A stretch of 64,000 bases of DNA from Candidatus Aenigmatarchaeota archaeon. GTDB lineage: Archaea; Aenigmatarchaeota; Aenigmatarchaeia; Aenigmatarchaeales; JACQIB01. This document shows positions 2,198 to 56,613 of the stretch, in pieces. The notes below the pieces were generated by a model. That model was not told where the DNA came from. It made no database searches and saw nothing but the letters and a program-made list of their open reading frames with translations. The position numbers and the translations under genes are program-made. The DNA lies in NCBI GenBank assembly GCA_016198755.1, contig JACQIB010000003.1:1-64000 (forward strand), in the 5' to 3' direction. Each line of letters begins with the position of its first letter. Positions within the stretch are counted from its first letter, which is position 1.

Positions 2198-2337
2198 AGC
2201 CCCGTCGTCTAGCGGCCAAGGATGACTGGCTCTGAAATTGGAGAGACCAGTATACAGAGGTTCGAAGCTCAGGGGGAAGTTTCCCCCTACAGCCCTACCC
2301 CCTCAGGTAGAGCGTGAAAATCCTCTCGGGGCTACCA
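2198..2337 (+). tRNA. tRNA-Gln(CTG) with two introns: 37/38 (2236-2245, 10 nt) and 59/60 (2267-2320, 54 nt)
   Basis: Acceptor AGCCCCG/CGGGGCT with A1-U72, anticodon stem ACTGG/CCAGT, T stem AGAGG/CCTCT, encoded CCA; BHB-like helices CTCT/GGAG and TTCG/TGAA. Confidence 0.92.
2267..2310 (+). repeat. 44-nt intron core, copy 1 (identical to reverse complement of 53823-53866)
   Basis: GCTCAGGGGGAAGTTTCCCCCTACAGCCCTACCCCCTCAGGTAG read directly at both loci. Confidence 0.97.
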
Positions 2338-37747: not shown

Positions 37748-38284
37748 TCATGGCTTGAAGAACTTTACCGCATAATATCCAACAGAATCTTTGTAAACAA
37801 CAGCCCAGAGCATGTTTGCGCGGATATTATGGGCTAATCTGACAGCTCTGCTGAGTTCAGGGAAAGAGAAAACATAGTTTTCCGGAACAGCAAACACAAT
37901 CCATTTTGTGTGTTCCCCAGCACTTTTAGGCCCCCTTTTCAGTGGTTTCACACCTTTGTTGTAAACCCTGAAGTCACATCCAAACTTAAACCCTGTTCTG
38001 GTTGGTAGTTCTTTGTTTCTCAAATCTTTGTAAACAGCATAGCGGAAGCTGAAGCGCGGATCTTTTTGGTTGCAATACTGGAACATTTCCTCCTTTCCAA
38101 CCTCTTTTCCTGTCTTATCCACCATAGTTACCTTTCCAATATCCAGTAAATATGCAGCTTCTATTAACGCAAGTTCAAGCCTGTCTTCCCTGGGCTTTCC
38201 CAGATAAAGCTCTTCAAACAGCTCATTTCCCTTTTCCCTGTCCCATACAACAGCTCTATTTTCTGCTAAAACAACTTCTATCAT
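37748..38284 (-). CDS. endA: tRNA splicing endonuclease, catalytic (alpha) subunit
   Basis: IEAAYL, VYKDLR, TGFKFGCDFRVY, EH, C-terminal KP. Confidence 0.92.
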   Translation of the reverse strand: MIEVVLAENRAVVWDREKGNELFEELYLGKPREDRLELALIEAAYLLDIGKVTMVDKTGKEVGKEEMFQYCNQKDPRFSFRYAVYKDLRNKELPTRTGFKFGCDFRVYNKGVKPLKRGPKSAGEHTKWIVFAVPENYVFSFPELSRAVRLAHNIRANMLWAVVYKDSVGYYAVKFFKP

Positions 38285-38285
38285 T

Positions 38286-38807
38286 TTATCCCACCTTCGG
38301 AGATTCTATTATGTAGTAAGTACAGTCAGAGTCATTATCCACAACAGCCCAGAGTGCAACAGATTTTATATTTTGTGCAAGTTTTATTGCTTTCCCAAGC
38401 TGCTCTAAAGCACATGGATAATCTTCTGCTGAAGTAAAAACAATCCATTTCACTGTTTCAGCTTTCCCAGGTTTTGCACCACGTTCATAAACCCTGAAAT
38501 CACATCCCTTAAATCCTGTTCTCACTGCTAATCCACGTTCCCTCAGGTCTTTGTATACTGAATAACGGGCCATGAAATGCTCGTCCCTTTCAGAACAATA
38601 ATTCAGAATTTCTTTCAAAGAAAGTTTTTGCTCTCCTATAACTACCTCTAGCTTTCCCCTCTCCAAAAGAGCTGCTGCTTCTATCTGGTCCAGTTCAAAT
38701 CCACTTCCAAGCGGATTACCATACCAGCCTGTTTCGTATAGCTCCTTTGCTTCGGGGCCTTCAACAACAACTTTGTCATTTTCCAGCTTTCCCGTCAGCA
38801 TATTCAA
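38286..38807 (-). CDS. endA: tRNA splicing endonuclease, structural (beta) subunit
   Basis: Paralogue with VYKDLRERG, CDFRVY, no catalytic His, acidic loop DNDSD; likely ATG start at 38801. Confidence 0.88.
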   Translation of the reverse strand: MNMLTGKLENDKVVVEGPEAKELYETGWYGNPLGSGFELDQIEAAALLERGKLEVVIGEQKLSLKEILNYCSERDEHFMARYSVYKDLRERGLAVRTGFKGCDFRVYERGAKPGKAETVKWIVFTSAEDYPCALEQLGKAIKLAQNIKSVALWAVVDNDSDCTYYIIESPKVG

Positions 38808-47758: not shown

Positions 47759-47903
47759 TGGAGCCCCAGGCAGGATTTTCCACCCTTTTGGGGTTTGCAA
47801 AGACCTTTTAGGGAAAAGGGATTTGCTTTGAACCTGCGGCCTGCTGTTTACGAAATTCGGCAGCTTATGCTTCAGCCACTCTACCGGTCTGAGCCACTGG
47901 GGC
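47759..47903 (-). tRNA. tRNA-Thr(CGT) with two introns: 30/31 (47856-47872, 17 nt) and about 59/60 (47776-47826, 51 nt)
   Basis: Acceptor GCCCCAG/CTGGGGC, U73, CCA; anticodon stem GCTGT/ACAGC after splicing; helix TGGC/GCCG with TG|A and AA|T; T-loop helix imperfect. Confidence 0.9.
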
Positions 47904-50752: not shown

Positions 50753-52405
50753 TTAGAACTCTTCGTGGTCGCCGCCATGGCCCATTCCTGGAGGCATTCC
50801 AGGTGGTCCGCCGCTCAGCCTGTTTGCTGTTATTATGTCATCTATCCTTAGTATCATTTCTGCTGCTTCAGAAGCAGAGCTTATTGCCTGTGTTTTTATT
50901 TTCAAAGGTTCTATTACACCTTCTTTCCACATATCAACTATTTTTCCTGTGAAAACATTCACTCCAGAAGTGTTCTGTCCCTTGTCATGTGCTGCTCTCA
51001 GTTCAACTAAAATATCTATTGGATCTAATCCAGCGTTCTCTGCTAAAGTTCTTGGTATAACTTCCATTGCTTCTGAAAATGCTAAAATAGCAAGCTGCTC
51101 ACGTCCAGAGTATTTCTGTGCAAAATCCCTTAAACCCTTTGCAACAGCCTCTTCAGGAGAACCCCCTCCAGCAACAACCTGCCCAACCTCTATAGATGAG
51201 GCAACTCCTCCTATAGCATCCTCAACTGCCCTGTAAACCTCTTCCACAACATGTTCTGTTCCACCCCTTACGAGCAGGGAAACAGCTTTCGGGTCTTTGC
51301 ATTCTTTCACAAACAGCATCTGTTCTCCTGCCACCTTCTTCTCCTCAACTAACCCTGCAAATCCTAAATCATCCTTTCCCAAATCATCCAAACTTGTTAC
51401 AATTCTGGCTCCAGTAGCCCTGACTAATTTTTCCATGTCAGATTTCTTTACTCTGCGTGCAGACATAATTTTCTTCTTTGATAAGTAATGCTGTGCCACA
51501 TCATCTATTCCCTTCTGGCAGAAAAGCACAGTGCACCCTGAATTTGCAATTTTCTCAACCATGTCTTTCAGCATCTTCTCTTCCTGTTCCAAAAACTTCT
51601 GCATCTGGTCAGGAGAAGTAATCTGTATCTGTGCATCAGTTTCAGTCTTTTCAATTTCCAAAGCTGTATCAACCAAGGCAACTTTTGCCCCCTTTACAGT
51701 TCTTGGCATCCCTGGGTGCACAATTTCCTTGTCAATTATAAGTCCGTTAACAAGTTCTGTATCCTCTATTGTCCCCCCCTGTTTCTTCTCAACTTTTATA
51801 TTGTCTGTATCAATAGAAATTTTTCCATCCTGCCTGTCTATAACCATTTTTACTGCTTTCACAGCAAGTCCAGCCAAATGTTCTGAAGCACGTTCAGCAG
51901 ATTTACCTGTCATTGCAGTTATTGCAATCTTTTTTAGGAGATCATCATCTTTTTCTGTTATTTTCTTTGAAACACTTTCAACCAGCTTTAAAGACTGTTC
52001 TTTTGCAAGTTTGTATCCTCTGGTTATAACAGTTGGGTGTATTTCTTGGTCTAAAAGCCCCTCAGCTCTCTTCAAAAGTTCACCTGCAAGTATCGCAGCT
52101 GTTGTTGTCCCATCCCCAACTTCCTCGTCCTGTGTCTTAGCAACCTCAACAACCATTTTTGCTGCTGGATGCTCTACCTGCATTTCCTCTAAAATTGTAA
52201 CCCCATCATTTGTAATAACAATATCTCCCATGCTGTCTACTAGCATTTTGTCCATGCCCTTTGGCCCTAAAGTAGTTCTAACAGCGTCAGAAACAACCTT
52301 TGCAGCAGCAATATTCGTGTGCTGTGCATCCTTTCCCAGCGTTCTTAATGTTCCTTCTGGCAAAACAAATATCTGCTGCCCCGCTCCACCCATTCCATTT
52401 GTCAT
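50753..52405 (-). CDS. ths: Thermosome (group II chaperonin) subunit
   Basis: [26 protein letters not shown]. Confidence 0.98.
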
Positions 52406-53082: not shown

Positions 53083-53778
53083 ATGAAAAGCAGAATACCT
53101 GCAGGCTTAAAGTATGCTGTTTTTGATTTAGATAATACTTTAGTTGAAGGAAGAGTTGCAAGCTATATTGGTAAAAGCTATTTTTTTAGAGAGTTATTTG
53201 GGCTCAGAATAGGTCATCTTTACAAAGGATGGAAAGGAATGAAAAGTGTTAAAGAAATTCTGAAAGAAGGCGGGGAAGATGCTGAAGCAAGGGGAATGGA
53301 AGCTTTTATGGGAGTTTTGGGGGAAACTAGAATTGCAACATGGGATAGTATATACGATTATGCAAAGAAGGCTGTAGAAAAACATGAATTGCCTGGGGCA
53401 AAGGAATTTGTAGGAAAATGTAAAAATAATGGACTTCAAACTTATATTGCCACTCTTGGGCTGCTTATATCAGCGCAGGCAGCTAGGGATTATTTTGGCG
53501 CAGATGCTGCGCGCGGCAACTCGCTTATAGCTGAAAATGGAATAATTAGGGGAGTTAAGCTGACAATGAAAACAGGTGAAGATAGGCTAAGAGAGGTAAG
53601 AACTATAGCAAATGTCAATGAGGCACTTGTTGTTGGAAACGATAGATTAGACTGGCCTTTGATGGATGCTGCAGGTTTTTCTGTTGCAGCCCCGCTGGCA
53701 GATGAGGAAACTAAAAAAAGAGCTGACATTACTATTACAGATTTCAGGGAATTGGAGTTTGAGCCGCGCAAGGTTTGA
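53083..53778 (+). CDS. HAD-superfamily hydrolase (SerB-like, subfamily IB)
   Basis: FDLDNTL, IAT, VGND.LD..LM..AG.SVA. Confidence 0.85.
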   Translation: MKSRIPAGLKYAVFDLDNTLVEGRVASYIGKSYFFRELFGLRIGHLYKGWKGMKSVKEILKEGGEDAEARGMEAFMGVLGETRIATWDSIYDYAKKAVEKHELPGAKEFVGKCKNNGLQTYIATLGLLISAQAARDYFGADAARGNSLIAENGIIRGVKLTMKTGEDRLREVRTIANVNEALVVGNDRLDWPLMDAAGFSVAAPLADEETKKRADITITDFRELEFEPRKV

Positions 53779-53789
53779 AAAAAAACAAG

Positions 53790-53996
53790 TGGTGGGCGGG
53801 AAGAGATTTGTTCAGCTTAGTCCTACCTGAGGGGGTAGGGCTGTAGGGGGAAACTTCCCCCTGAGCTTTGAACTCTCGGCCACCAGTTAACCTAAACTTT
53901 TCGGAACGCAGCCACGCTTTCACGCGAGTGCGCGATTATAAGACTGGCGCTCCAACCGGGCTTTGCCTTGGCTTTTGCCAAATGAGCTACCCGCCC
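53790..53996 (-). tRNA. tRNA-Ile(TAT) with three introns: 14/15 (53962-53982, 21 nt), 37/38 (53889-53936, 48 nt), 58/59 (53808-53867, 60 nt)
   Basis: Acceptor GGGCGGG/CCCGCCC, A73, CCA; anticodon stem CCAGT/ACTGG, loop CT-TAT-AA; helices CTTA/TAGG and GTTC/GAAC. Confidence 0.9.
53823..53866 (-). repeat. 44-nt intron core, copy 2 (identical to 2267-2310)
   Basis: Direct sequence comparison. Confidence 0.97.
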
Positions 53997-54033
53997 ACAA
54001 GTCTATTTATTCCTTGGAAGGGAATTTAAACTA

Positions 54034-54933
54034 ATGCTAAAGGGTAGTTTAGTAGAGGCTGTCGAGAATCTGCTGGAAAAGAATGATTATGTTACTTTCG
54101 GGTATTCTGGCTGTTTTGATTTGGCAGCTAGAAGGGAAAAAACACTTTTCCTGAAAGTTTTGCAGAATGTGGATTCTTTTTCTGAAGCACAGTCAAATAG
54201 CCTGAAAATAATCTCAAATAACATAAATGCGACAGCCTTCCTTGTTGGACTGCATACGCGCAGGGAAAAGCTTGCAAAGGGTGTTGTATATGAGAGGTTT
54301 GATATACCAACTGTTTCAATGGAAACACTGAAAGAGATAATTGAGTTTGATGTTTTCCCAAAGTTCCAGAGGGATAGGGGAGGGTTTTATGTGGAGATAG
54401 ATTCTGCTGCACTCAAGAAATTAAGAGTTCAGTCAGGCTTTACACAGAGAGAATTAGCAGAGGCTGTTGGAATAAGCAAGAAAGCAATTTACGAACATGA
54501 GAAAGAGCAATTAAGGATGGATTTGAGCATTGCTGAAAAGCTGGAAAAACTGCTTGAAGGGAAAATAACAATGGAGTTTTCTCCCCAGAAATTTTCTGTT
54601 GGCAAATCAATACCCTCCTCAAAAATAGAAGGATCTGTGGCTTCAGCCCTCTCAAAGAAGGGATTTTCAGTTGATTTCGTTTCCTCTGCACCATTCGATA
54701 TTTTTGCAAAAGAAAAGACCGTTATTGTTTCAGATGTGGAAAGGATTGGGGGAGGAAAGAGGACTCTTAATCTGGAAAGGTTCATAGCTGTAGTAAAAAA
54801 GCCCGCTTTTGTTGTTTCAGAGAAAAATACTGAAGAACACGCCGAAATACCTGTTATAGCAAGGAAAGAGCTGGGAAACATAAGCAAGGAAGAAATAATA
54901 AGAATTGCAAAAAGAGCAAAGGTACTGAAATGA
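54034..54933 (+). CDS. Archaeal HTH transcriptional regulator (COG1395/MJ1164-like)
   Basis: CFDLAAR, KVLQNVD, GVVYERF, RGGFYV.ID, Xre HTH, APFD. Confidence 0.9.
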   Translation: MLKGSLVEAVENLLEKNDYVTFGYSGCFDLAARREKTLFLKVLQNVDSFSEAQSNSLKIISNNINATAFLVGLHTRREKLAKGVVYERFDIPTVSMETLKEIIEFDVFPKFQRDRGGFYVEIDSAALKKLRVQSGFTQRELAEAVGISKKAIYEHEKEQLRMDLSIAEKLEKLLEGKITMEFSPQKFSVGKSIPSSKIEGSVASALSKKGFSVDFVSSAPFDIFAKEKTVIVSDVERIGGGKRTLNLERFIAVVKKPAFVVSEKNTEEHAEIPVIARKELGNISKEEIIRIAKRAKVLK

Positions 54934-54974
54934 ATATAAACCTTGGAAACCAAGCTAATACTGGGGTGGGGATA

Positions 54975-55376
54975 ATGAAAAGGGCTGTAAAAGGACAATT
55001 AAAGCAGTTTGAAGTTTTGTTGGAAAACAGGACAGGTGCAATGGCAGATTTGACTGAGGCTTTGGCAAGGAATGCTGTAAATATCAAAGCCATATCAACG
55101 CATGCCAATGGACCACAAGGAAAGGTCTTGCTTGTAACTGAGGATGATATGACAGCACGCGAAGCTCTGGAAAAATCAAAACATAGTTTTGTTGTTTCAG
55201 ATATTCTCTCATTAGAATTATCAGACAGGCCAGGTGAGCTTGCAAAGATTTCAAGATTGCTTGCAAAAGCAGGTGTAAACATGGAATCTGTATATATTTT
55301 AGGAAACAGGGATGGTTCAACAGAAGTTGCCCTTAAAGTGAGTGATATAGCAGCTGCTAAAAAGGTATTTTCATGA
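54975..55376 (+). CDS. Tandem ACT-domain protein, paralogue 1
   Basis: LENRTGAM..L...AVNI, DRPGELA...GVNMESVY. Confidence 0.9.
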   Translation: MKRAVKGQLKQFEVLLENRTGAMADLTEALARNAVNIKAISTHANGPQGKVLLVTEDDMTAREALEKSKHSFVVSDILSLELSDRPGELAKISRLLAKAGVNMESVYILGNRDGSTEVALKVSDIAAAKKVFS

Positions 55377-55750
55377 GGCACTTTGAGGTTACAATATCAA
55401 ATAAAAAGGGTGCTCTATCAGAACTTTGCGAAACTTTAGCTGCAGGTAATGTAAATATACGGGCTATAGCAGCTGAAGGTGAGGGAAAGAAGGGAAAGCT
55501 AAAGTTTGTTGTAGATAATGATTCTCTGGCAAAGCAGGCATTGAAACATGGTGGATACAAGTTTGTAGAGCATGAGATTCTGCCTATAAAAATGCTGGAC
55601 AAGCCAGGTGAGCTTGCCCGCGTGGCAAAAGCCCTTTCCCATTTGGGTATAAACATAGAGTCTCTCTATATTTTAGGAAAAGAAAACGGTCAGACTGAAG
55701 TGGCATTTAAAGTATCTGATTTGCAAAAGGCTAAGAGTATTTTCGGCTAA
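55373..55750 (+). CDS. Tandem ACT-domain protein, paralogue 2
   Basis: NKKGAL...NVNI, DKPGELA...GINIESLY; ATGA overlap. Confidence 0.9.
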   Translation: MRHFEVTISNKKGALSELCETLAAGNVNIRAIAAEGEGKKGKLKFVVDNDSLAKQALKHGGYKFVEHEILPIKMLDKPGELARVAKALSHLGINIESLYILGKENGQTEVAFKVSDLQKAKSIFG

Positions 55751-55788
55751 GTAGAAGACTTTTATTCTTTCTCTGCACAGATTTCTGC

Positions 55789-55948
55789 GGGCCGGTGGTC
55801 TAGTCCGGTATGACATCACCCTGACAGCAGTCAAACCATTATGTTTGTCTTGCGGAACGGTGGGAGTCGCAGGTTCAAAGGAGGAGAAACTACGTATCTC
55901 CCTCCACCCTCTCCCTTTGAGGGGCTGAAAATCCTGCCCGGCCCACCA
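55789..55948 (+). tRNA. tRNA-Val(GAC) with two introns: 37/38 (55827-55857, 31 nt) and 59/60 (55880-55931, 52 nt)
   Basis: Acceptor GGGCCGG/CCGGCCC, CCA; anticodon loop CT-GAC-AC after splicing; helix TTCA/TGAA with AA|G and AA|T. Confidence 0.92.
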
Positions 55949-55983
55949 CCATATATTTATAGTATTTGTACAAACCATAGACC

Positions 55984-56613
55984 ATGGGAATAAGGTTTTT
56001 TTATATTATCTTGTTGTTGGTTGTTATAGCGGCTGGATGCACCAATCAGGGCGATTCCGAAAGAAAGGAGGCAGAGAAAGCGTACCAGAGCGCTGTGCTC
56101 AGCGGAGACCCGCAAAATTGCATGAAATTAAAATCATCTGATAGTCAATCTTGTATAACAAAAATAGCAGAAAACAAAAATGACATTTCAATCTGCGGAA
56201 TGTTAGAATACAAATATAACTGTATAAGTAGCCTAGCAGTTAAAACAGGCGATGTTGTAGCTTGTTCACAGCTGGAGGCACAGAGCCAAATCAAGAACAA
56301 CTGCTTTTTGGGTGCAGCTAACAGAATCTATGAAAAGTTGCATGGTAGAACAGCCTGTGCAGATTCCAAAGAAAACTTCCAAGAAACCAAAAAGCTTATA
56401 GGCTCGAAATATCCAGCAACTACATATGCAGAGAAAACCGTAGATAGATCAGAAGTTAGGGAGGCGAAAGGGTACATACTCATTTTCTGTTCTACTGGCT
56501 GGTCTGTAAGGGGTGAATATAGAGAAGTAATCGGGGACCTCTTTTTCAGTTCTGATGCAAAAGCTGCGATAAGCATATCAACTGGGGAGGTATTGGAAAA
56601 CATACCAAGATAA
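55984..56613 (+). CDS. Cys-rich repeat lipoprotein
   Basis: IAAGC lipobox; repeated C...A....D...C units. Confidence 0.75.
   Translation: MGIRFFYIILLLVVIAAGCTNQGDSERKEAEKAYQSAVLSGDPQNCMKLKSSDSQSCITKIAENKNDISICGMLEYKYNCISSLAVKTGDVVACSQLEAQSQIKNNCFLGAANRIYEKLHGRTACADSKENFQETKKLIGSKYPATTYAEKTVDRSEVREAKGYILIFCSTGWSVRGEYREVIGDLFFSSDAKAAISISTGEVLENIPR

Follow-up and report, generated by a model that had tools for sequence, protein, structure and literature searches.

How introns come to sit in archaeal transfer RNA (tRNA) genes is an open question, and the mechanism of their arrival is called unknown in PMC4090602. In Thermoproteales, "large-scale tRNA intron transposition" has been proposed (Fujishima et al. 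2010, as cited in PMC4090602, PMC3239211, and a 2026 preprint), likewise with a mechanism that these sources leave unknown. ARMAN-2 (Candidatus Micrarchaeum acidiphilum), an ultrasmall archaeon, as far as the account in PMC3239211 goes, has tRNA introns at position 59/60 and double introns at 53/54 and 59/60, with relaxed or strict bulge-helix-bulge (BHB) motifs, one of which was cut in vitro by the organism's own endonuclease. For tRNA-Thr(GGU) of Caldiarchaeum subterraneum, the account in PMC3293823 has an intron gained via an integrated mobile element, with tRNA fragments in direct repeat. In Asgard archaea, copying, mobile elements, and reverse transcription were tested, and the 2026 preprint found no general route. 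Here we analyzed a stretch of 64,000 nucleotides (the window) from a Candidatus Aenigmatarchaeota archaeon, in which the T-loop introns of two tRNA genes share an identical, hairpin-forming core. The window covers the start of contig 1 (its first 64 kb) in a 6-contig assembly (890,842 bp, or 0.89 Mb; ~40% G+C; 89% complete). A search of the literature, supplements not covered, on repeat elements in archaeal tRNA introns and on DPANN tRNA introns turned up no such families.

Positions 2266 to 2310 on the forward strand of the window are the reverse complement of positions 53823 to 53867, 45 nt with 0 mismatches, and 100 dinucleotide-preserving shuffles gave an expectation of 0.00 chance matches for an identity of this length. 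The initial annotation had described a 44-nt core shared by the T-loop introns of tRNA-Gln and tRNA-Ile on opposite strands, with exons and intron 3' ends that differ. We could confirm the core, with one base more at its 5' end, and on reading the flanks also the different exons and 3' ends (AGCGTGAAAA versus GACTAAGCTGAACAA). It overlooked the wider extent of the repeat, as the genome carries a family of nine copies.

The first copy lies in a tRNA-Gln(CTG) gene (2198 to 2337, + strand) with an encoded CCA end and two introns. One, of 10 nt, is in the anticodon loop (2236 to 2245, +; position 37/38, ends accurate to ±1 nt), and the other, of 54 nt, is in the T loop (2266 to 2319, +), giving a loop of 61 nt versus the usual 7; owing to a repeated A, its position is either 58/59 or 59/60. 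The cloverleaf was drawn by hand with the help of an acceptor/T-stem scan, and the exons match an intron-free ortholog in another genome (G001), against which the anticodon-loop intron was delimited. The core (2266 to 2310, +) consists of hairpin 1 (AGGGGGAAGTTTCCCCCT) and hairpin 2 (CTACC-loop-GGTAG). The second, identical copy (53823 to 53867, - strand) lies in a tRNA-Ile(TAT) gene (anticodon UAU; 53790 to 53996, -), which was recognized by the scan, by reading, and by an ortholog on a metagenome contig (L012). This gene also encodes CCA and has three introns, in the D loop (21 nt; 53963 to 53983, -), the anticodon loop (~48 nt; 53887 to 53936, -, ends approximate), and the T loop (60 nt; 53808 to 53867, -). 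The T-loop intron was delimited by loop length and minimum-energy fold; the other two, placed by alignment with L012 and by BLAST, are single copy in the genome. In both genes the core starts directly after the T-loop bases TTCGA (Gln) or TTCAA (Ile) and is followed by a gene-specific 3' tail, the bases AT, and the 3' strand of the T stem. Removal of the 54- and 60-nt inserts leaves the 7-nt loops TTCGAAT and TTCAAAT, as found in uninterrupted tRNAs of the same genome. Host tRNA identities were assigned by a stem-pairing scan and by reading of the sequence. On the 64-kb window, ARAGORN without introns reported no tRNA, Rfam at the gathering threshold reported one tRNA and no family matching the cores, and a permissive Rfam search of 53700 to 56000 yielded four weak, irrelevant matches only.

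BLAST and pattern search showed that the nine copies of this family (family A) are distributed over eight tRNA genes and one intergenic site, so that the search for copies outside tRNA genes, proposed in the initial annotation, had one positive result. Seven copies lie within T-loop introns (58/59 to 59/60) of tRNA genes for Gln(CTG), Ile(TAT), Ser(GCT), Lys(CTT), His(GTG), Ile(GAT), and Arg(GCG). The eighth is in the D-loop intron of tRNA-Glu(CTC) (gene at contig 3, 17643 to 17827, -), and the ninth, at contig 3, 31444 to 31481, lies within the 76 nt that separate a serine-hydrolase-like gene from a DUF1275 gene. Across 45 nt, four of the T-loop copies agree in every base, and a fifth (His) does so across 43 nt; the host exons are unrelated. 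All seven T-loop copies begin with AGCTC, and most end with a GAAAA-type sequence; in 7/7, the insert is flanked by pairing strands of a 7-bp acceptor stem and a 5-bp T stem, and its removal restores TTCRAAT. The Arg(GCG) copy has a 51-nt two-hairpin segment nested between the two hairpins of the core. We considered this segment as a separate repeat and dropped the idea, the segment being single copy in the genome and found in 0/41 other genomes of the order.

The core folds as two adjacent hairpins, AGGGGG-AAGU-UCCCCCU and CUACC-loop-GGUAG. Both form in the tRNA-Gln T-loop intron (-22 kcal/mol; z, -2.56); the tRNA-Ile(TAT) T-loop intron, a short form, has a z of -2.76, and the long form, with the nested segment, folds into four hairpins with a z of -6.60. 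The stem of hairpin 1 is invariant in 10/10 aligned copies, and the sole variable site of this hairpin is a loop base; as MAFFT misplaced the gap of the long form, the hairpin-1 columns alone were used, and invariant stems give no covariation signal. In the minimum-energy fold of the Ile(TAT) T arm, the T stem is followed by a 3-nt AAA bulge, a 5-bp GUUCA/UGAAC helix, and then the two hairpins. For the remaining copies we drew by hand a pairing of TTCG or TTC in the T loop with TGAA or GAA in the tail and of GCUC with GAGC or a G-U variant. Such pairing of the 3' ends with the T loop and the intron 5' end would build the splice site. The difference between the 3' ends, which the initial annotation had taken as an argument for a mobile cassette, is real and would be explained by the fit of the predicted splice-site pairing to each exon.

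Our preferred explanation, to which we assign a probability of roughly 0.55 as a whole, is that the core is a module atop BHB-type introns that has been copied at the DNA level among tRNA genes and kept since it is spliced. The 45-nt identity would be the interior of a lineage-specific repeat, located at the apex of introns that are predicted to have relaxed BHB sites, in which TTC(G/A) of the T loop pairs with (T)GAA near the intron 3' end and GCTC of the intron pairs with GAGC. An endonuclease pair encoded within the window at 37748 to 38807 would cut these sites in the pre-tRNA. The core would be a passenger above the splice helix, and for this reason it would be identical while the ends vary by gene. 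The module, or an intron carrying it, would have been copied between introns and T loops of different tRNA genes, and it would persist because splicing renders the insertion harmless.

The endonuclease candidates are two adjoining genes. The first (37748 to 38284, -) encodes an alpha-like subunit of 178 amino acids with PF02778 and PF01974 domains, whose best relative of solved structure is the catalytic chain of Nanoarchaeum equitans (3IEY_A, E 8.8e-29). The second (38286 to 38807, -) encodes a beta-like paralog of 173 amino acids with the same two domains, whose best stretch aligns with the first (EndA-like) unit of 5X89_A; its nearest relative is the beta-like unit in the Methanopyrus (M. 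kandleri) enzyme, and its match to the N. equitans beta chain (NEQ261, 3IEY_B) is weak. The alpha-like subunit keeps the Tyr and His that align with those of the N. equitans catalytic chain and has RAN in place of that chain's RKK, and the beta-like paralog has T at the position of the alpha-like subunit's His. Two-subunit endonuclease architecture is tied to noncanonical introns, as far as PMC5829648 and PMC3239211 describe it, while the Methanopyrus enzyme itself is constrained in specificity. Going by its domains and relatives, the pair encoded here is probably of the type known to accept noncanonical sites, with a predicted substrate range that would include the T-loop introns.

The evidence for a module comes mainly from places where the core is found without the rest of a T-loop intron. 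The tRNA-Glu(CTC) and tRNA-Glu(TTC) genes have their first 21 and last 25 exon bases in common, and their D loops are interrupted at the same site by introns with a shared 3' part (CACGGA type) that pairs with the D loop. Above this shared base, the apex is a 4-bp hairpin with a GCAA loop in Glu(TTC) and a GCCC/GGGC helix carrying the family A core in Glu(CTC), where the core lacks T-loop-type ends. In the six other genomes of the same taxonomic family, the Glu(CTC) ortholog has a same-site intron with an unrelated interior (12 to 36 nt) in 4/6 and no intron there in G001. The Gln(CTG) ortholog has a same-site T-loop intron with an unrelated interior in 3/6 and no intron in 2/6, and the gene was not found in 1/6. 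Taken together, the D-loop copy, the intergenic copy, the nested 51-nt segment, and the interiors of the orthologs favor a module that comes in at the apex of introns already present or substitutes for that apex. The same observations, together with the spread of a related core (family C, below), partly support the proposal in the initial annotation of a mobile cassette over whole-intron copying. The word "mobile" describes a distribution, since no transposase, integrase, or target duplication was found.

Family A seems to have a narrow range. With a 21-nt hairpin pattern allowing ≤2 mismatches, no match was found in the 41 other genomes of the order, and in the class there was 1 match (2 mismatches) in 370 other genomes, which was equalled by one match of the reversed control. 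The viral contigs scanned with this pattern gave 0 matches. Public genome contigs gave 1 match, which is hairpin-only and in a bacterial metagenome-assembled genome, and public metagenome contigs gave 2, a chance hairpin on L011 and, on L012, the Ile(TAT) ortholog from a related organism. This organism is the only close relative found, and it has the core at the orthologous site. The coding flanks on L012 are 163/205 (80%) and 242/295 (82%) identical to those of the window, and its promoter is 44/45 identical. The two loci have three length differences: L012 is missing the 21-nt D-loop intron (the alignment gap that delimits it here), has the long T-loop intron, and has one base fewer in the loop of hairpin 2. 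The 51-nt segment in the L012 Ile(TAT) intron is 48/51 identical to that of the Arg(GCG) copy here and is not present in Ile(TAT) here. From this pattern, the long and short forms either moved between loci or were gained and lost repeatedly. A single related contig already shows differences in the D-loop intron and in the 51-nt segment; population data from the same habitat could reveal such gains and losses as they happen.

L012 also supplies the first of several points that weigh against our preferred explanation. At aligned positions, its tRNA gene and introns are 184/185 identical to those of the window, which speaks for constraint over recent spread, and the single-copy anticodon-loop intron, with 1 difference, is as conserved as the core. 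The core and its intron, shared with L012 and nearly unchanged, are therefore older than the split of the two organisms, and with flanks at 80 to 82% the sequence must have been constrained or homogenized; the conservation may belong to the whole tRNA locus. The claim of a recent copying event in the initial annotation is thus not supported as stated, and identity between copies alone dates no such event. As to the remaining points on this side, splicing is inferred, and the central helix of the splice motif is 3 to 4 bp in most copies, hand-drawn, and outside the minimum-energy fold. Only 1/9 family A copies is outside tRNA genes, and this copy, truncated to 38 nt and with 2 mismatches, could be a relic. 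On reading the flanks of the nine copies we saw no terminal inverted repeats and no target duplication, and the 89%-complete genome gave no match to a Y1 transposase, a tyrosine recombinase (PF00589), or a TnpB-like protein. The PF00589 profile, which matched in all 14 control genomes, archaea included, gave 0 matches in this genome and in five others of the class (G187, G188, G189, G195, and G006).

Family A is one of at least four families of T-loop introns in this genome. Candidates were accepted by our tRNA scan only with CCA encoded, stems fully paired, and a T loop starting with TTC; the scan gives a lower bound and is silent on CCA-less genes. By eye we kept 38 tRNA genes of 186 scan candidates, on the basis of GC-rich stems and a readable cloverleaf, and discarded the remainder as chance. 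A T-loop insert was found at the same place in 22/38, and its removal restores a 7-nt loop. Two hand-read genes, Glu(CTC) and a Leu-like gene at contig 5, 115577 to 115740 (+), are also interrupted in the T loop, so that at least 24 of ~40 tRNA genes are concerned; 31/40 are longer than 100 nt. We note that the 3' CCA is encoded in all 40 genes, CCA being a requirement of the scan. The Glu(CTC) and Leu-like genes seem to hold two T-arm inserts (53/54 and 59/60), and in the Leu-like gene the small insert, at 53/54, looks similar to the intron in the D loop of tRNA-Glu(TTC). On the whole genome, ARAGORN with introns found 18 tRNAs and Rfam gave 16 tRNA matches over the cutoff. Most tRNA genes of this genome are thus missed by standard tRNA finders, which is relevant for annotation.

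The 22 T-loop inserts comprise 7 of family A, 5 of family B, 6 of family C, 3 of family D, and one unassigned 12-nt insert. At ≥90% identity, 14/22 fall in clusters spanning several tRNA genes, and at ≥80% identity, 19/22 do. All four families open with AG, close with a GAAAA-like tail, and occupy the same T-loop position. Genome-wide, family C has 7 intron copies and one intergenic copy, the latter just 3' of a stop codon, and family D has 3 copies (one short form and two long forms). Within the window, tRNA genes with family B and family C T-loop introns are found at 47759 to 47903 (-) and 55789 to 55948 (+), respectively, and further along contig 1 those with sister-family introns include the genes at 68563 to 68732 and 69155 to 69298, among others. 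With at least 24 of ~40 tRNAs interrupted in the T loop and most inserts in four repeat families, the genome is an extreme and clean case in a small genome.

The four families are probably old relatives. The alignment of families A and C scored 40 versus 9.5 ± 6.1, above all 2000 shuffles, and the alignment of A and D was likewise above all 2000. Family B was also found in G002 and in G006, the latter with at least 6 T-loop copies that are 81 to 94% identical. Family C was found in G005 (3 copies) and, at 86% identity, in G017, a member of a different taxonomic family within the order. Which intron family a given tRNA carries can vary with the genome: a Leu gene has family B here and family C in G005, and a tRNA with a GCGCCAG acceptor strand has family D here and family C in G017. 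Allowing ≤1 mismatch, the 18-nt hairpin of family C occurs in 19/371 genomes of the class; in a family of another order it occurs in 12/44 genomes, with up to 10 copies per genome. The family C loci that we read include D-loop, anticodon-loop, and other introns, in either orientation, as well as sites directly upstream of start codons and other intergenic DNA. On contig 4 of G187 (L107 and L115), two cores stand directly upstream of opposite-strand start codons (…cat|aagagGAGAAAC…), which may be coincidence or regulatory use. We also looked for a link with IS200/IS605 elements and dropped it. Y1 transposase genes are present in G188 (3) and G187 (3 fragments at contig ends), and scanning of ~1.5 kb on their sides, at four loci, showed no family C core with ≤4 substitutions.

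The nearest competing explanation is whole-intron transposition of the kind proposed for Thermoproteales, in which a full T-loop intron is copied among T loops and the splice-adjacent bases are then adapted, the core being no independent module. In its favor, 7/9 copies sit at exactly the same T-loop position with a common 5' AGCTC and mostly GAAAA-type 3' ends, families B, C, and D repeat this pattern of position and ends, and near-identical introns in different isodecoders are the Thermoproteales pattern as the review PMC4090602 presents it. Such copying among T loops is compatible with the evidence for a module. As a complete account we find it unlikely, given that the Glu(CTC) D-loop copy has a base matching a core-less Glu(TTC) intron and no T-loop-type ends, that the intergenic copy lies outside any tRNA gene, that the 51-nt segment was gained or lost within the core, and that family C cores occur in D-, anticodon-, and T-loop introns and outside tRNAs. 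Concerted evolution on its own, in which old, independently gained T-loop introns are homogenized by gene conversion with no new insertions, appears improbable to us. Conversion is unable to place the core in a differently flanked D-loop intron or between genes, and this one genome keeps four distinct families side by side at a common site, not homogenized. Still, the common 45-nt core offers homology for conversion, the distribution of forms (Ile(TAT) long in L012 and short here, Arg(GCG) long here) requires exchange between loci, and the occupation of the same tRNA by different families in different genomes fits as well.

It is also conceivable, if rather unlikely in our judgment, that purifying selection maintains the core as a functional RNA or as an element bound by protein, for example an excised intron that is stable or circular, or a site used by a processing factor, in which case the copies may be old. 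The conservation of the Ile(TAT) ortholog relative to its coding flanks is what one would expect from such an element, as are the retention of the family C hairpin at 0 to 1 mismatch across two orders and the restriction of variation in hairpin 1 to one loop base. In family B (14 introns, 11 distinct), two nested helices are kept in 97.5% of cells, with compensatory changes at 3 pairs (8 cells), and covariation is 0.226 versus 0.069 ± 0.026 in shuffles, of which 0/500 reach the observed value (slid controls, ≤0.137), among sequences that are related and with a structure derived from these same sequences. Set against this are the lack of the core in the 41 other genomes of the order, the orthologous tRNAs that work without the core or with other interiors, and the equal conservation of a single-copy intron in the same gene, which again may belong to the whole tRNA locus. 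Guide RNAs of the C/D-box type, as in the tRNA-Trp intron, have a C box (RUGAUGA) and a D box (CUGA). By reading, no family A copy has a C box and some only have CTGA near the 3' end, and at the gathering threshold there is no Rfam family match. An assembly artefact, by repeat collapse or misjoining in the metagenome assembly, is very unlikely. Public contigs from 4 DNA runs, all from a single study that may have supplied this DNA, stop inside the repeat at 53846 to 53851, and no independent contig bridges it, so that these contigs neither bridge nor contradict the assembly. However, acceptor and T stems pair across the insert in 7/7 T-loop copies, the independent contig L012 has the same intron in the same gene, and the depth of the bin with the core is 4 to 5 times that of its neighbors in all 4 runs, as expected for a multicopy 45-mer. 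Elsewhere in the window, positions 50800 to 52400 show many variant letters, joints, and high summed depth in the contigs of the four runs; this region presumably holds a gene that is conserved and also present in other members of the community.

A possible origin of the cores was suggested by family C in four other genomes (the f3 genomes G039, G029, G027, and G035). In 4/4, the hairpin is single copy and antisense to a nearby tRNA, and the layout is the same: an intact tRNA, a segment with the core at its end, and a directly repeated copy of the tRNA 3' end starting from the first T of the T loop. In G039 (L065, 1156 to 1545), the repeat is 24 nt and exact and the segment is 288 nt with no open reading frame. 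In G035 (L089, ~590 to 1545), the repeat is 21 nt and exact and the ~850-nt segment has an S-adenosylmethionine (SAM)-methyltransferase gene. In G029 (L067, 871 to 1548), the repeat is 22 nt with 1 mismatch and the ~565-nt segment has a Cys-rich open reading frame of 160 amino acids with no Pfam family, and in G027 (L066, 842 to 1425), the repeat is ~9 nt and the segment is ~475 nt. By analogy, this layout resembles that left by elements integrating into tRNA 3' ends, and no recombinase was seen beside the insertions. Split or permuted tRNAs were considered for these loci and rejected, as a single core copy per genome has no pairing partner and the upstream tRNA is intact. The layout was not seen for family A, and no clear tRNA fragment lies beside its intergenic copy. 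Because TTCGAA is palindromic, these loci, when read on the opposite strand, and the 5' splice sites of family C introns have the same junction of TTCGAA followed by the core. It is therefore tempting to speculate, on the basis of family C and not of family A, that the cores of A, C, and related families serve as recognition ends for an undescribed class of small DNA elements, whose target would be the palindromic hexamer TTCGAA/TTCAAA in the T loop of tRNA genes; we would not expect this to be the case, but judge it worth stating. Insertion of such an element in one orientation would leave the tRNA intact, together with a small segment of cargo and a repeated tRNA 3' end, as seen with the C core in the four genomes. 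In the opposite orientation, or once only its ends were left, the element would interrupt the T loop and survive only as an intron, via BHB ends. If true, the sequences themselves would directly back the long-standing idea that integrating elements are the ancestors of archaeal tRNA introns.

Among known systems, REP (repetitive extragenic palindromic) and MITE (miniature inverted-repeat transposable element) type palindromic repeats and the hairpin ends of IS200/IS605 elements are short, hairpin forming, and multicopy, and some are intergenic. The families described here are similar in having intergenic copies (1/9 in family A; family C here and in other genomes). They are different in that no terminal inverted repeats or target duplication were seen and the genome has no Y1 transposase. 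A strong preference for tRNA introns is, to our knowledge, no property of REP/MITE or IS200/IS605 elements.

The comparison with tRNA introns of other archaea is closer. As in Thermoproteales, to the extent that they are covered by the sources cited above, near-identical introns, of BHB type there and of predicted BHB type here, are found across isoacceptors in one genome, with unrelated exons and many of them at noncanonical positions. A rough comparison, as the denominators differ, is that of 14/22 T-loop introns in ≥90% clusters here with the 12.5% of all intervening sequences given for Thermoproteales in the 2026 preprint. Unlike in Thermoproteales, the host is not a crenarchaeon but has a 0.89-Mb genome in a class with genomes of ~0.3 to 2 Mb, the spread is concentrated on the T loop, and the shared part is an apical module that is also found in another intron type and between genes. 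An archaeon from a class with small genomes is also what the endonuclease genes, the type of intron, and the genome sizes of the class point to. Heavily interrupted tRNAs with pairs of introns at 53/54 and 59/60 are shared with ARMAN-2 (apparently Glu(CTC) and the Leu-like tRNA here; tRNA-Pro in ARMAN-2, in the PMC3239211 account). In that account, ARMAN-2 has a single three-unit epsilon2 enzyme, in contrast to the two adjacent full-length alpha/beta-type paralogs here, and repeated intron families and cores outside tRNAs, as found here, do not appear in it. As described for Caldiarchaeum in PMC3293823, tRNA introns are linked here with direct repeats of tRNA fragments and an inserted segment, but the link consists of sequence identity between intron core and insertion edge, in different genomes, with no recombinase beside the insertions. 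The finding is real and of a known kind, that of repeated tRNA introns spread among tRNA genes, and it bears on the question of how archaeal tRNA introns arrive. What sets it apart from that kind is the very small archaeal genome, the focus on the T loop, the hairpin core found outside T-loop introns and outside tRNA genes, and the sister families across orders.

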